Source: an uncultured Alphaproteobacteria bacterium (lineage in GTDB: Bacteria > Pseudomonadota > Alphaproteobacteria > Rs-D84). Taken from it: 64,000 bases of DNA. The first letter of the stretch is position 1. Each line of letters begins with the position of its first letter. Of the stretch, positions 7,663 through 45,523 are shown in pieces. Where the stretch lies: the NCBI GenBank assembly GCA_934232895.1, contig CAKQGH010000002.1:15287-79286 (forward strand), in the 5' to 3' direction. The translations under genes were made by a program, and so were the position numbers. Under the pieces are notes generated by a model. That model worked only from the letters and a program-made list of their open reading frames with translations. It had not been told where the DNA came from and ran no database searches.

Positions 7663-8095
7663 TTAGAGAGCAAAGAGCAATGAGCAGAGAGCAATGAAAT
7701 CCTCTTCACTGGGCGAAGGGGTGTCCGCGCAAGCGGACGGGGTAGTGGTAAATATGTCCCCGCAGGGCAATGGTGACCCTCCTGCGCGGGGATGACAATT
7801 CTTTTTATGTGCTGTGTTCTGTATCTTCGTCGCTGACTAAGTTCTCCTCCTGTGGAGGAGTACCGCGTAGCGGGGTGGTCTTGAGAGTGCGCAAAGTTGT
7901 ACAAAGTTTCAAAAAACGACTACCCCGCCGGGCATATGCCCGGCACCCCTTCTGGCCATAAGGGGATTTAATTGCGTATCCCTGTTGTGGTCTAAATTCC
8001 CCTTCGCTGGCGAAGGGGTGGACGCGTAGCGGACGGGGTAGTGGTAAACAAGTCCCCGCAGGGACAAATAAAAAAACTCCATAAAAATCCCCGCA
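7663..8095. repeat. cluster of RPE-like short palindromic repeat units
   Basis: Units recurring elsewhere in the window: 'ccccttcgctggcgaaggggtg' (x2), 'gacggggtagtggtaaa' (x2), 'gtccccgcaggga' (x2), 'ctcctcctgtggaggag...gggtggtcttgagagtgc', and AGAGCAR heptamers after the stop. Confidence 0.8.
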
Positions 8096-18611: not shown

Positions 18612-19592
18612 TAGTGTAAAAAAGAGCAATGAGCAGAGAGCAGAGAGCAATGAAGCGCGCCATTCGGCGTCTTATATTCTTGTCATTCCTGCGTAGGCAG
18701 GAATAGGGCCTTGGAAATTACTCTCACTTGGTGTTGTACAATATTTGGTAAAAAAGTGAATATCAATATCACTGTACACCGCAACATTCTGGGTTTGGCT
18801 CGTTGACACTCGCACTGTATAGTCCCTATTCCTGCCTGCGCAGGAATGACAATCTTTGGGTTCTGTCATTGCGAGCGGAGCGTGGCAATCCAGTAAACGA
18901 CACCCCGTCGCGTTGCGCCACCCCGGCTTTCCAGAGGGGAACAAAGCTCATCATCGTCGCGGAGCAAAATCCCCTTCGCTAAGCGAAGGGGTGACCACGA
19001 AGTGGGCGGGGTAGTGGTAAATACACCCCCGCGGGGCAATGGTGACCCTCCTGCGCCGGCATGACGTTTTTTTGTGCTGTGTCCCTGTATCCCCATCGCG
19101 GAGCAAGTTCCCCACCGGTGGAGGGGTGGCCGCCAGGCCGGGGTGGTCTTGAGAGTGCAATGTGGAATAAATGTAAGACAAAAGACCACCACTCCGCTGC
19201 GCGGTACTCCTCCACAGGAGGAGAACTTGGTATGCTCCCGTTGCGGACTTCTCCGCTGGCAGAACCCCGGGTCGGGGTGATAATTCTTTTTTTGGGGGGG
19301 CGCATCCCTAGCGTGGACTCTCACTTGCCGTCATACCGGCGCAGGCCGGTATCTATTGCCCCGCAGGGACAAAAAGACCACCCCGGCACTCCGTGCCACC
19401 CCTCCACCGGAGGGGAACTTAGTATGTACCGAGAATAAACAAAATTCCCCGTCGCTTGGCCCCCCACGCAAAAAAAAATTTCAATTTCGTGGGACCAGTG
19501 TCGTGGTGGCACGAAGTGCCGGGGTAGTGGTGATTGCGTGTTGCCGGCATCCAAAATAATTCCTGGTGCGGGCGGGGCGGGTGTGATATGGT
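18612..19592. repeat. ~1 kb intergenic hotspot made almost entirely of RPE-like palindromic units plus a MITE copy
   Basis: AGAGCAR heptamers, MITE (18682-18850), 'gtcattgcgagcggagcgtggcaatcca', 'tccccttcgctaagcgaaggggtg', 'ggggtagtggtaaa', 'gttccccaccggtggaggggtg', 'gtcataccggcgcaggccggtat', 'caccccggcactccgtgccacccctccaccggaggggaac', 'cccacgcaaaaaaaaatttcaatttcgtggg'. Confidence 0.85.
18682..18850. mobile_element. MITE-like element copy 1 (~169 bp, ~27 bp hairpin-forming terminal inverted repeats)
   Basis: TIRs 'gtcattcctgcgtaggcaggaataggg' / 'ccctattcctgcctgcgcaggaatgac'. The interior matches copies at 55576-55746 and 58808-58978. Confidence 0.8.
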
Positions 19593-30791: not shown

Positions 30792-32282
30792 ATGTTGCAC
30801 ACATCTGATTTTGATTTTGAATTGCCATCTGAATTGATTGCATCGCACCCGCTGGCGCGCCGTGACGCATCCCGTATGCTGGTGGTGAAAAGTTCCCCTC
30901 CGTTGGGGGGGTGTCGCGAATGCGACGGGGTGGTCAGAGATTCCGTAAATTACAGAACATTGCCATTTAACAGTAAATTAAAAGAAAAAGCACGCGCTTT
31001 GCGTCGCGCTGGCAGTTTGCCAGAAGTACTGTTATGGAAAGAAATCAAAAATCATCAATTGAACGGGTTGGATTTTGACAGACAGAAAGTCATAGGCGAT
31101 TATATAGTGGACTTTTTCTGTGCGTCCAGATTCGTCGTTCTGGAAATAGACGACAAAGCGACGCATGCTTTAAAAGCAGAATCCGATGCGGCGCGCGACG
31201 AGTATATGCGTGGCCTGAATCTCACTGTTATACGAATCCCGGCGGCGGATGTGTTGAAAGATGCACATGCGGTTTATCTGTGGCTCTCTAACCACCCCGC
31301 CTTGCAGGCGCCCCTCCAACGGAGGGGAACTTGTGTCGAATTATCTGACCGGCATATTCGGGATTTTTTGGATTATATTCGCCCGGGCGATGTTGTGGTG
31401 TTTAATAATTCGCGTGTTATTCCGGCGCGTTTTGATGCGACCGATGCCGCGGGGCATGCGTATGAAATCACACTGCACACCGCGGCGGGCGGCAAACTGT
31501 GGTGGGGCCTGTGCAAGAAATTCACCCGCATTGCGGTTGGCGACACATTGACCATGACCGATGGCACGCAAATCCGCGTGGTTGCAACCGACCCCGACAG
31601 TGGGTTAAAACTGGAATTTTTATGCGATGATGTGTTTGCGGTTCTGAATAAAATTGGCAAAATGCCATTGCCACCATATATGCATCGCGACCAGGAATAT
31701 TCCGACCGTGAACGGTATCAGACCGTGTATGCCGACCCAATTGGTTCAATGGCGGCGCCAACCGCGGGGCTGCATTTTACCCCAGAACTGATGGATGAAA
31801 TCACGCGTCGTGGTGCAACGATTGTAAAGGTCACACTGCACGTTGGTGCGGGCACATGGATGCCGGTCAAGACCGAGGATTTATCCCAACACAAAATGCA
31901 CAGCGAGTGGTGCCAGATTACCCCCGCCCAGGCGGATATTATAAACAATGCAAATCGCGTTATTGCGGTGGGTACGACATCAATGCGAACGTTGGAAAGT
32001 GCGGCAATGCGTAATCGTGAATTGCCGGAATCAGAGCGTGGCCACCGTGTTGTGCCGTTTTGTGATACGACCGATATATTTATTACACCGGGGTACACAT
32101 TTGGTGCGGTGGACGTGTTGCTGACGAATTTCCATTTGCCAAAATCTACATTATTTATGTTGGTTTCCGCGTTCGCTGGATTGGATGAAATGAAGGCCGC
32201 GTACGCGCATGCGGTCGCCGAAAAATACAGATTCTTTTCATACGGCGATTGTTGTTTGTTATTTAAAAAGGATGGGGAATAA
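30792..32282 (+). CDS. queA: S-adenosylmethionine:tRNA ribosyltransferase-isomerase QueA carrying a ~154 aa in-frame insertion
   Basis: QueA N-terminus 'DFDFELPSELIASHPLARRDASRMLVV', then the insertion, then 'IRPGDVVVFNNSRVIPARF...GTTSMRTLESAA...TNFHLPKSTL'. 496 aa versus ~345 typical. Confidence 0.85.
   Translation: MLHTSDFDFELPSELIASHPLARRDASRMLVVKSSPPLGGCRECDGVVRDSVNYRTLPFNSKLKEKARALRRAGSLPEVLLWKEIKNHQLNGLDFDRQKVIGDYIVDFFCASRFVVLEIDDKATHALKAESDAARDEYMRGLNLTVIRIPAADVLKDAHAVYLWLSNHPALQAPLQRRGTCVELSDRHIRDFLDYIRPGDVVVFNNSRVIPARFDATDAAGHAYEITLHTAAGGKLWWGLCKKFTRIAVGDTLTMTDGTQIRVVATDPDSGLKLEFLCDDVFAVLNKIGKMPLPPYMHRDQEYSDRERYQTVYADPIGSMAAPTAGLHFTPELMDEITRRGATIVKVTLHVGAGTWMPVKTEDLSQHKMHSEWCQITPAQADIINNANRVIAVGTTSMRTLESAAMRNRELPESERGHRVVPFCDTTDIFITPGYTFGAVDVLLTNFHLPKSTLFMLVSAFAGLDEMKAAYAHAVAEKYRFFSYGDCCLLFKKDGE
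30888..31349 (+). mobile_element. in-frame insertion inside queA: a DUF559 (Vsr/MutH-like endonuclease fold) domain followed by an RPE-like palindrome
   Basis: 'LPEVLLWKEIKNHQLNGLDFDRQKVIGDYIVDFFCASRFVVLEIDDKATH...RDEYMRGLNLTVIRIPAADV' DUF559 signature. RPE unit 'caccccgccttgcaggcgcccctccaacggaggggaac' at 31284-31330 translated in-frame. Confidence 0.7.
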
Positions 32283-42264: not shown

Positions 42265-42451
42265 ACAGAGAGCAGAGTGTAGAGAGCAGAGAGCAATGAA
42301 AAGTGAGCAAGTGACAGAGCGATAAAGTGATACAGTTTTTTCTACGAACATAATTCATTTTCTGCGGAATATTATTTTTAAGTCGTCATACCGACGAAGG
42401 TCGGTATCCATTGCCCCGCAGGGACTGATAATACCACTACCCCGTCCGCCC
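42265..42451. repeat. left ~185 bp inverted repeat (IR-L) of the invertase/adhesin cassette
   Basis: Reverse complement matches 45338-45523 at ~90% identity, including the unique stretch 'aagtgagcaagtgacagagcgataaagtgatacag...ttctgcggaatattatttttaagtcgtcataccgacgaagg...ctgataataccactaccccgtccgccc'. Confidence 0.8.
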
Positions 42452-42596
42452 AGGGCGTCCACCCCTTCGCCAGCGAAGGGGAATTTGATAGAGTCACCCT
42501 CTTGTCATTGCGAGCGCAGCGTGGCAATCCATAAAACGACACCCCGGCACTGCGTGCCACCCCTCTCGCCAGAGGGGAACTTTCATTGCTCTCTAT
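42452..42596. repeat. RPE-like unit cluster inside the cassette
   Basis: 'caccccttcgccagcgaagggg', 'gtcattgcgagcgcagcgtggcaatcca', 'caccccggcactgcgtgccacccctctcgccagaggggaac'. Confidence 0.75.
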
Positions 42597-44588: not shown

Positions 44589-45242
44589 ATATCATTCATA
44601 GGATATATTCGTGTCAGTTCAAATAAACAAACTGTGGCACATCAACGTTTTGAAATTAGCCAGTTTGCTGCTGCACACAAAATCACAATAGACCGGTGGG
44701 TCCAAGAAACGGTATCGTCGCGCCAACCGTTGGATAAACGACAGTTGGGCGAATTATTGCATGAATTGAAACATGAAGATGTTTTGATTTCGTGTGAAAT
44801 ATCGCGCCTGGGGCGTTCGTTGCTGGAGGTAATGCGAATCTTGGAAACATGTATGAACAGTGGCGCCCAAGTTTGGACAATCAAAGAAAATTACCGATTG
44901 GGCGATGATATACAAAGCAAAGTTATGGCGTTTGCGTTCGGACTGGCCGCAGAAATTGAGCGAAATTTAATATCGCAACGCACTCGGGCGTCGTTGAACA
45001 ATATTCGCGCCGCAGGCAAAAAGTTGGGGCGCCCATTTTCGGCACAATCAAAAAAACTGAAACTGACGCGCAATGCACATAAAATAAAGCAATTACTGGA
45101 TGCGGGGGTATCACGATATAAAATTGCCCAAGTTATGCATGTCCAGCCTATAACGGTGAATCGTTTTACCAAGCGCATGGGGTGGGATAAATTTATTAGA
45201 GAGCAGGGTGCATCCGTCTCCGCTGACGCTCCGCCGCGATAA
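44589..45242 (+). CDS. serine recombinase of the DNA invertase/resolvase family (Hin/Gin/Pin-like)
   Basis: In-frame N-terminus 'IGYIRVSSNKQ' (catalytic Ser motif) lies upstream of the track's GTG start (44634). It is preceded by AGGAGG at 44577-44582 but has no ATG/GTG/TTG; a possible ATA start is at 44589. 'ISRLGRS', 'EIERNLISQRTRASL', 'GRP', C-terminal HTH. Confidence 0.8.
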   Translation: MSFIGYIRVSSNKQTVAHQRFEISQFAAAHKITIDRWVQETVSSRQPLDKRQLGELLHELKHEDVLISCEISRLGRSLLEVMRILETCMNSGAQVWTIKENYRLGDDIQSKVMAFAFGLAAEIERNLISQRTRASLNNIRAAGKKLGRPFSAQSKKLKLTRNAHKIKQLLDAGVSRYKIAQVMHVQPITVNRFTKRMGWDKFIREQGASVSADAPPR

Positions 45243-45290: not shown

Positions 45291-45337
45291 CGTCGCGGAC
45301 CAAGTTCCCCTCCGGTGGAGGGGTGGTGCGAAGCACC

Positions 45338-45523
45338 GGGCGGACGGGGTAGTGGTATTATCAGCCCCTGCGGGGCAATGGTGGCCCTCCTTCGTCGGTA
45401 TGACGACTTAAAAATAATATTCCGCAGAAAATGAAATATGTTCGTAGAAAAAAACTGTATCACTTTATCACTCTGTCACTTACTCACTTTCATTGCTCTT
45501 TGCTCTCTGATCTTTGCTCTCTG
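45338..45523. repeat. right ~185 bp inverted repeat (IR-R) of the invertase/adhesin cassette
   Basis: Reverse complement of 42265-42451. Confidence 0.8.

Follow-up and report, generated by a model that had tools for sequence, protein, structure and literature searches.

The window analysed here is a stretch of 64,000 nucleotides from an uncultured alphaproteobacterium (contig CAKQGH010000002.1, positions 15,287 to 79,286 of the forward strand), and the subject is its queA gene, around which the gene order era-queA-tgt is syntenic. The gene is a single open reading frame (ORF) that carries, between two parts of a recognisable QueA, an extra segment made of a DUF559 nuclease domain and of two oppositely oriented copies of a repeat unit, the terminal inverted repeats (TIRs). 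This arrangement, referred to below as the cassette, recurs in frame in many unrelated genes across bacterial phyla, which suggests a kind of mobile element that appears not to have been described. No description of it was found in the literature, the coverage of which lacked most subscription-journal papers, and an earlier description is possible. The features of the locus are as follows (structural models are from AlphaFold2, AF2, with pLDDT as the measure of model confidence):

30792 to 32282, plus strand: queA ORF, 496 amino acids, with no stop through the cassette (Pfam and NCBIfam matches)
30792 to 30887, plus strand: N-terminal segment of QueA, residues 1 to 32, ending in the β-strand SRMLVV (aligns to 1YY3 residues 10 to 36; AF2 strand at residues 28 to 33)
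30890 to 30940, plus strand: left TIR, AAGTT-CCCCTCC-GTTG-GGGGGGG-TG-GTCGCGAATGCGAC-GGGGTGGTC(AGAGA), encoding the linker SSPPLGGCRECDGVVRD (inverted-repeat pairs I1 and I2; pLDDT below 50)
30948 to 31298, plus strand: core of the DUF559, Vsr-like PD-(D/E)xK nuclease, residues 53 to 169, with no start codon of its own (Pfam, PDB, AF2, Foldseek)
31285 to 31332, minus strand: right TIR, the unit on the minus strand, in which ACCACCCC encodes the C-terminal N-H-P of the nuclease and the remainder encodes ALQAPLQRRGT
31335 to 32282, plus strand: C-terminal segment of QueA, residues 182 to 496, beginning with the β-strand (C)VELSDRHIRDF (Pfam, 1YY3, AF2)

The insert in QueA and its nuclease

The ORF scores above the cut-offs of two QueA equivalogs in NCBIfam (NF001140, 411.6 bits against 324; TIGR00113, 354 against 267), while the Pfam domain Queuosine_synth is split into two stretches, the best of which covers residues 183 to 490 (E=4e-114). 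DUF559 (PF04480) matches residues 62 to 161 with E=3.7e-23 and 81.9 bits, the gathering cut-off being 20.6. In the alignment to Bacillus subtilis QueA (1YY3), residues 10 to 36 of that protein correspond to residues 7 to 33 of the query and residues 41 to 345 to residues 183 to 490; the gap at this point means that a 4-residue turn between two β-strands has been replaced by the extra segment. By comparison with a relative whose site is empty (L001, 349 amino acids, 94% identical), the insert measures 441 nt or 147 codons, with limits at about 30890 and 31332. A preliminary description of the locus, made from the sequence, had read queA as one uninterrupted 496-residue frame with a segment extra to canonical QueA and had assigned that segment to DUF559. 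Both statements are borne out by the ORF, the 1YY3 alignment, the empty site of L001 and the PF04480 match. The limits given there (30888 to 31349) have the right place and are slightly too wide, and the inverted copy of the unit at the 5' end of the insert (30890 to 30940) had been overlooked. QueA had also been called an essential-pathway enzyme; queuosine synthesis is a conserved but not generally essential pathway.

The full-length AF2 model is of moderate quality (pLDDT 66) and was used for the pattern of linkers and strands only. It places the insert between the strands at residues 28 to 33 and 183 to 188, with low-confidence linkers at residues 34 to 59 and 174 to 181 that correspond to the translated repeats. 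The fold search was made with a model of the core alone, which has a pLDDT of 88. The best structural match is the DUF559 protein 3HRL (Foldseek, E=9.8e-6), also matched by sequence in the PDB (E=2e-12). Among characterised proteins the best match is 3R3P, the catalytic domain of I-Bth0305I (E=1.5e-4, TM 0.71 to 0.72, probability 1.00), and Vsr itself matches much more weakly. In the family alignment, the putative catalytic residues D107, E118, D120, H125, D132 and R135 do not vary. No NUMOD or helix-turn-helix (HTH) domain is recognised by Pfam, and the helices ahead of the catalytic core add up to only about 40 residues.

Is the nuclease still maintained in its present position? The nearest match of the window protein (P0001, from locus L085) is 93% identical and likewise 496 amino acids long. 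Between the two, the DUF559 core has a dN/dS of 0.037 at a synonymous divergence (dS) of 0.65, and the host parts of QueA have a dN/dS of 0.044 at a dS of 0.84. The nuclease is thus maintained as a protein, under purifying selection as strong as that on QueA, and QueA, despite its insert, has remained under normal constraint. Stand-alone copies of the gene possess a start codon that the queA copies have lost (MRKTQTY.. against ..VRDSVNY..), so that production of the nuclease in queA relies on the host gene being translated.

The constraint on QueA despite the insert would also be expected if the insert were removed as an intein, as an intron or as an excised RNA closed by a stem, leaving a mature QueA without the cassette. 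In the transcript, the two TIRs are predicted to pair as a long terminal stem that joins the two queA junctions (minimum free energy z=-6.4). However, such a stem carries no special weight, because any pair of TIRs yields one automatically. Searches of Rfam gave no intron or other RNA family for the insert (E up to 10), nor any RNA family for the repeats across the whole window. An intein was rejected, since Pfam finds no Hint domain and the junctions are without the pattern of an N-terminal Cys or Ser and a C-terminal His-Asn followed by Cys, Ser or Thr. The junction residues also vary among relatives: ..RRGT|C ends the insert of the window, and elsewhere the end is ..GGE|P or ..GGEL|V. Removal is hardly credible in view of these results, of a nuclease that requires translation in the host frame, and of an insertion point within a short surface turn.

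Double-hairpin units at the termini

The ends of the insert are imperfect inverted repeats of about 45 to 50 nt each, whose arms pair over 42 nt at 76% complementarity, with an overlapping pair of 15 nt at 93%. The general unit has the form AATTCCCCTCC-N3-4-GGAGGGGTG-(variable hairpin)-GGGGTGGT, is 41 to 47 nt long and contains two hairpins. In the window, the arms consist of AAGTT-CCCCTCC-N4-GGAGGGG (hairpin A), TG, a short variable hairpin B and then GGGGTGGTC. Both hairpins are predicted on either strand as single-stranded DNA.

Two lines of evidence concern the level at which the unit is conserved. Synonymous divergence between the window and L085 is only 0.085 in the left TIR and 0.10 in the right, against 0.65 to 0.84 in the neighbouring regions. 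This corresponds to 2 synonymous changes on about 23 sites in both TIRs, compared with about 154 on 316 sites elsewhere (Fisher p=1.2e-4); with so few synonymous sites, dN/dS for the TIRs is not meaningful. The low dS indicates that the repeats are maintained as nucleic-acid sequence. The second line is covariation. Across 28 distinct 41-nt units the sequence of hairpin A is invariant, and hairpin B is paired in 100% of them although three of its four pairs vary on both sides. The compensatory changes fill 20 cells against 4.5 in shuffles (0/500 shuffles as high), and in slid registers only 0 to 3 cells. As the search pattern left hairpin B unconstrained, its covariation is an independent result. 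Many of its loops are of the C-GAA-G type. Such loops form very stable DNA mini-hairpins, which hints at DNA rather than RNA structure.

How closely is the unit tied to the nuclease gene? The question was addressed with 82 cassettes at 80 loci, taken from genomes that represent species of at least 12 phyla. The inverted-repeat score between 130-nt flanks (75 cassettes) has a median of 22, compared with 10 for flanks further out, and reaches 20 or more in 59% of cassettes and in 0% of controls. With a strict pattern, a unit lies within 160 nt of 54 of the 82 cassettes, on both sides in 27; none of the 135 segments taken as controls at a distance of 1 kb has one. Right units most often overlap the final codons of the nuclease gene, where ACCACCCC encodes the conserved N-H-P. 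The association also appears in the reverse direction. In metagenomes, a pattern for the 42-nt class (4-nt loop, 10-nt spacer) returned 11 loci on the DNA sequence of the unit alone, and 5 of these hold a DUF559 relative; among 13 units at these loci, 3 are within 300 nt of the DUF559 relative, two of them in the expected downstream orientation.

The palindrome is therefore an integral inverted terminal repeat of the cassette, conserved across phyla. The preliminary description was right that a palindromic repeat encodes the C-terminal end of the insert, as the unit at 31291 to 31332 is real and recurs in the window, but its suggestion that the palindrome had landed next to the domain gives way to one of two integral TIRs.

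The termini may be more complex than a single repeat. In the cassette lineage of the relatives L099 and L100, an extra unit in the left orientation stands at the right end, beyond the inverted right unit, and L099 carries a further 41-nt insertion (616 to 656). These right ends indicate that the termini can be arrays of units rather than single TIRs.

Alleles in relatives, other hosts and rival explanations

Among QueA homologues, DUF559 (PF04480) is found in 100 of the best 120 listed, at either of two sites or at both. Site 1, occupied in the window, follows SRMLVV, and site 2 lies between TLESA and TTDIFITPGY. The nearest named genomes are of the alphaproteobacterial genus Candidatus Enterousia. 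Relatives that are 94 to 95% identical over the QueA part, from human-gut metagenomes and with the same era-queA-tgt synteny, have proteins of only 349 to 358 amino acids. Their alleles form a series. In L001 the site is empty (..VV-DDKELSNR-HIRDF..). L003 has a 27-nt solo hairpin, CCAATTCCCCACCAACAGAGGGAAACTT, at the identical position and has the right junction in common with the window, which is the allele to be expected if the CCCCTCC arms, direct repeats in the two terminal hairpins, had recombined. L097 keeps the remnant AAAAGTTCC | GAT.., L098 one whole solo left unit, and L100 the site-1 remnant GAACCC..GGGGGAAAACT. Since "empty" alleles keep such remnants, the site has been occupied and vacated in the past. 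Among QueA homologues there are also pristine loops (DGxxxSDK), and in other strains solo units fill the loops of site 1 and site 2.

The cassettes have moved between the two sites. Cores do not group by site (mean identity 0.68 between site-1 cores and 0.66 between site 1 and site 2), and some site-1 cores are 92 to 94% identical to site-2 cores of other strains. L099 and L100, whose queA genes are about 92% identical in DNA, carry one cassette lineage at site 1 and site 2, respectively, and the repeats move along with the nuclease gene. The pair records movement between sites, not a recent jump.

Three side observations were made at these loci. Over the 90 nt left of the site, the window and L003 (10001 to 10100) are 99% identical against a background of about 87%, with no rise on the right side, which is only suggestive of a recombination or co-conversion tract. 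Two QueA proteins (P0049 and P0051, 718 and 728 amino acids) have a second DUF559 cassette of another subfamily (..IIEVDGxQH..) with flanking peptides that look different, and it appears from these sequences that more than one cassette lineage uses the same QueA loops. In L085 (10417 to 13019), two M16 peptidase genes lie between queA and tgt, which are adjacent in the window, L001 and L003.

Could DUF559 have become a working part of QueA? Recruitment of the fold as an accessory domain (e.g., for nucleic-acid binding) that is functional in this clade would agree with its frequency among the best QueA homologues and with selection on DUF559 as strong as that on QueA, kept over a dS of about 0.65 to 0.84. 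However, close relatives lack the domain or have footprints only, it occurs in two different loops and sometimes in both, its nuclease catalytic residues are invariant, and the same cassette with its repeats is found in unrelated enzymes and as a free gene. Domestication is accordingly very improbable. The same polymorphism, the second QueA site and the unrelated host proteins, together with the strong match to the DUF559 model, show that the extra segment is not an ancestral domain of QueA.

Outside queA, the domain is widespread. When 1.84 billion cluster representatives were searched exhaustively, 12,475 of them matched with E up to 1e-3, and 33 of the best 150, counted from the listed lengths, exceed 350 amino acids and have the domain embedded. 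Stand-alone DUF559 proteins of 130 to 180 amino acids, 50 to 60% identical, occur in Gamma- and Betaproteobacteria, Firmicutes and others, and share the flanking peptides NSPPLEGWQAxPDGVV ... NHPALxGTPPxEGN, which are translated units. Hosts recognised with Pfam in a representative search include fumarase (Lyase_1, split), many HsdS proteins, type ISP specificity domains (split), Eco57I and N6/N4 methylases, Mur ligases, an Aminotran_5 enzyme (split) and iPGM, the Metalloenzyme domain of which spans the insert. The same flanking peptides recur in all seven hosts that were read (fumarase, iPGM, Aminotran_5, two Mur ligases, one HsdS and one type ISP enzyme). In the 80 loci, about 32 of the 82 cassettes lie inside ORFs of more than 400 amino acids, as counted from ORF spans, and the recurrent hosts are HsdR (between its nuclease and ATPase domains), type ISP enzymes, methylases, HsdS and PriA. 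Viral contigs gave only 10 loci, mostly distant, and no exact match to the 41-nt unit pattern searched. PADLOC gave no match for the cassette and PHROGs only noise, an outcome that leaves an origin as a defence system or in phages unsupported.

One of these hosts deserves separate mention. The HsdR of a Chitinophagales genome (L034, 1501 to 5904, 1468 amino acids) contains a DUF559 cassette and a GIY-YIG domain (residues 275 to 343), together with at least 10 units, single or in tandem, that are translated at four loops in two different frames, an extreme example of colonisation in frame.

That many hosts are restriction-modification (R-M) genes bears on two other explanations. In the first, DUF559 would be a Vsr-type mismatch-repair nuclease travelling with methyltransferases, the queA copy an accidental fusion and the palindromes unrelated repeats, like repetitive extragenic palindromes (REP), in tolerant places. 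A precedent exists in the Caulobacter DUF559 protein VsrA, proposed to be Vsr-like and encoded beside a cytosine methylase (PMC12907096). However, most of the R-M hosts belong to the type I, type ISP and N6/N4 enzymes rather than to the m5C methylases, and the housekeeping hosts (QueA, fumarase, iPGM, Mur ligases, PriA) are unlinked to methylation. Moreover, across phyla the repeat keeps a fixed position and orientation relative to the nuclease gene, the C-terminal NHP of which it encodes. With the missing PADLOC match added, there is little chance that this explanation is correct.

In the second, the TIRs would serve an invertible switch. Inversion between them would put stops in the host frame, resulting in ON/OFF phase variation of queA and, above all, of R-M genes, which are classic substrates of phase variation. 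A simulated inversion keeps the frame and creates 4 stop codons in queA, and in a published screen "DUF559 domain-containing protein" is among the most enriched predicted targets of programmed inversion, with an odds ratio of 14 (PMC9881135). Nevertheless, no invertase is linked to the cassette, and a resolvase-type ORF at a distance of 13 kb keeps its syntenic place in genomes that lack the cassette. No inverted allele was seen, though protein searches would miss one. Inversion also leaves the selection on the nuclease, the stand-alone copies and the spread across phyla unexplained. A switch is unlikely as the whole explanation, and it could coexist with mobility instead of replacing it.

The insert is probably a selfish mobile cassette, in which a Vsr-like DUF559 nuclease gene lies between inverted double-hairpin units and survives by read-through in surface loops. 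In-frame read-through and a selfish character had been proposed in the preliminary description, and the polymorphism among relatives and the unrelated hosts agree with both.

Several points weigh against this interpretation. The nuclease activity, the target and the transfer of the cassette are all putative. Pfam recognises DUF559 as the sole domain of the cassette, with no transposase or recombinase, and 28 of the 82 cassettes have no unit under the strict pattern. No target-site duplication is found at three pairs of junctions (those of the window and the site-1/site-2 junctions of L099 and L100). The cassette of the window is old, with a dS of 0.65 relative to L085, about equal to that of the host gene, and the L099 and L100 copies are 90.8% identical, about as diverged as their hosts, so that no recent jump has been caught. 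At the queA locus, much of what is seen can be put down to vertical descent and repeated loss. The units could be an independent repeat that was later invaded by the nuclease gene. Finally, the preference for the host frame may reflect ascertainment, as a protein search finds in-frame copies on the same strand, in addition to selection. No intrinsic sensing of frame is claimed, because in-frame, same-strand copies are those that survive and are found.

Comparison with known elements and a possible route of movement

The cassette appears, by analogy, to work most like the gene of a Vsr-like (EDxHD) homing endonuclease. Such enzymes, of which I-Bth0305I is an example (PMC2677866, PMC3239194), have in common with it the Vsr-type fold, acidic and histidine residues and a life as a selfish gene inside host genes. 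I-Bth0305I cleaves a pseudopalindromic target as a dimer, leaving 2-nt 5' overhangs (PMC3239194), a mode of recognition that fits the palindromic hairpin A of the unit. However, the cassette falls outside that family by its lack of NUMOD or HTH domains and of a group I intron or intein as housing. It has conserved, structured TIRs, is translated within the host protein and never removed, and resides in many host genes, whereas EDxHD homing endonucleases are found at one cognate site.

The units also recall the Rickettsia palindromic elements (RPEs), GC-rich and stop-free palindromes that lie in frame in surface loops of functional proteins, as the units do in the loops of QueA and HsdR. The likeness is an analogy of behaviour only. 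The RPE-like behaviour invoked in the preliminary description holds for the in-frame palindromic units, but this element encodes a protein. RPEs are non-coding, without a protein of their own, and restricted to one genus, whereas the cassette repeats bound a nuclease ORF under purifying selection and occur across bacterial phyla. We know of no protein partner of RPEs, nor of any enzyme assigned to in-frame palindromic repeats since RPEs were described. RPE-like in-frame palindromic repeats may have their autonomous partner in the cassette.

In REPtrons, a small gene for a REP-associated tyrosine transposase (RAYT) likewise lies between inverted hairpin repeats that are also scattered elsewhere, mostly in intergenic regions. 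RAYT is an HUH/Y1 transposase, whereas the cassette enzyme is a Vsr-like PD-(D/E)xK protein with no Y1_Tnp match in Pfam; the unit begins with AATTCCCC and lacks the REP tag GTAG/CGTC; and frequent residence in frame within genes is a feature of the cassette, not of REP. With insertion sequences (IS) and their miniature transposable elements with inverted repeats (MITEs), the cassette has in common TIRs, a full-length coding copy and short non-coding derivatives (compare 19105 to 19230, below). It differs from IS in having no recognised DDE, HUH, serine or tyrosine transposase, in showing no target-site duplication at the three junction pairs and in being read through by the host ORF. The insertion in the methylase of phage ShiLan (PMC11855218) is, like the cassette, an in-frame, non-intein, non-intron segment with a homing-type nuclease, tolerated as an extra loop or domain. 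In ShiLan, though, the HNH nuclease has its own start codon in a different frame, not the frame of the host, conserved hairpin TIRs are absent, and the setting is phages, while the cassette is almost absent from viral contigs.

It is quite possible, if slightly short of probable, that the cassette represents a distinct pan-bacterial class of mobile element, in which a Vsr-fold nuclease mobilises its own hairpin termini without target-site duplication, is expressed by read-through and acts as the autonomous partner of RPE-like repeats. In the selfish-cassette interpretation, the element has landed in the turn of a QueA β-hairpin and is translated as part of QueA; its GC-rich, stop-free repeats encode flexible linkers, the nuclease folds apart, and QueA remains functional. 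From the features above we infer the following way of moving. The nuclease, probably a dimer like I-Bth0305I, would recognise the palindromic hairpin A (CCCCTCC-N3-4-GGAGGGG), as a duplex or extruded, and nick or cut there. Without any target-site duplication, host recombination or repair could then copy the cassette into homologous alleles that are empty (homing) or into further copies of the unit. Loss would follow from recombination between directly repeated hairpin arms and leave solo hairpins or solo units in frame.

If true, such a class would assign a function to much of the very large DUF559 family and offer a testable mechanism by which palindromic repeats colonise coding sequences, a nuclease gene with such repeats as its termini being a concrete candidate driver of in-frame palindromic repeats. 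Housekeeping and R-M enzymes tolerate a foreign domain of 150 residues over the long term under normal purifying selection, which bears on the annotation of "fusion" proteins and on protein engineering (permissive loops, self-contained linkers). The conserved unit is also a simple sequence probe for further elements of this kind.

The window holds 9 units of the double-hairpin architecture, against 0 to 1 in shuffled sequence, and 7 of them are intergenic. A second DUF559 copy was not found in the window by tblastn. The units outside queA are as follows:

19105 to 19230, plus strand: MITE-like element of 125 bp (left unit, 40 nt, inverted right unit), without a nuclease ORF, intergenic
19377 to 19420, minus strand: solo unit of the cassette subfamily, intergenic
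45302 to 45353, plus strand: intergenic solo unit, a short way downstream of a resolvase-type ORF
7919 to 8042: unit pair of a second subfamily (7919 to 7965, minus strand, and 7999 to 8042, plus strand), CCCCTT..AAGGGG ... GGGGTAGT, intergenic
18971 to 19015, plus strand: solo unit of the second subfamily, intergenic
42436 to 42481, minus strand: second-subfamily solo unit in the gap between convergent ORFs

The 125-bp element is a candidate non-autonomous derivative of the cassette, and under the proposed mechanism the solo units, too, would be its non-autonomous relatives. In the second subfamily, hairpin A is CCCCTT(CGC)..(GCG)AAGGGG and the tail is GGGGTAGT. Its copies in the window are all intergenic, and in a Candidatus Enterousia genome (L068) it also flanks a DUF559 gene. 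The resolvase-type ORF directly upstream of the solo unit at 45302 to 45353 encodes a serine recombinase (44634 to 45242) and is probably unrelated to the cassette, because it is syntenic in relatives that lack it.

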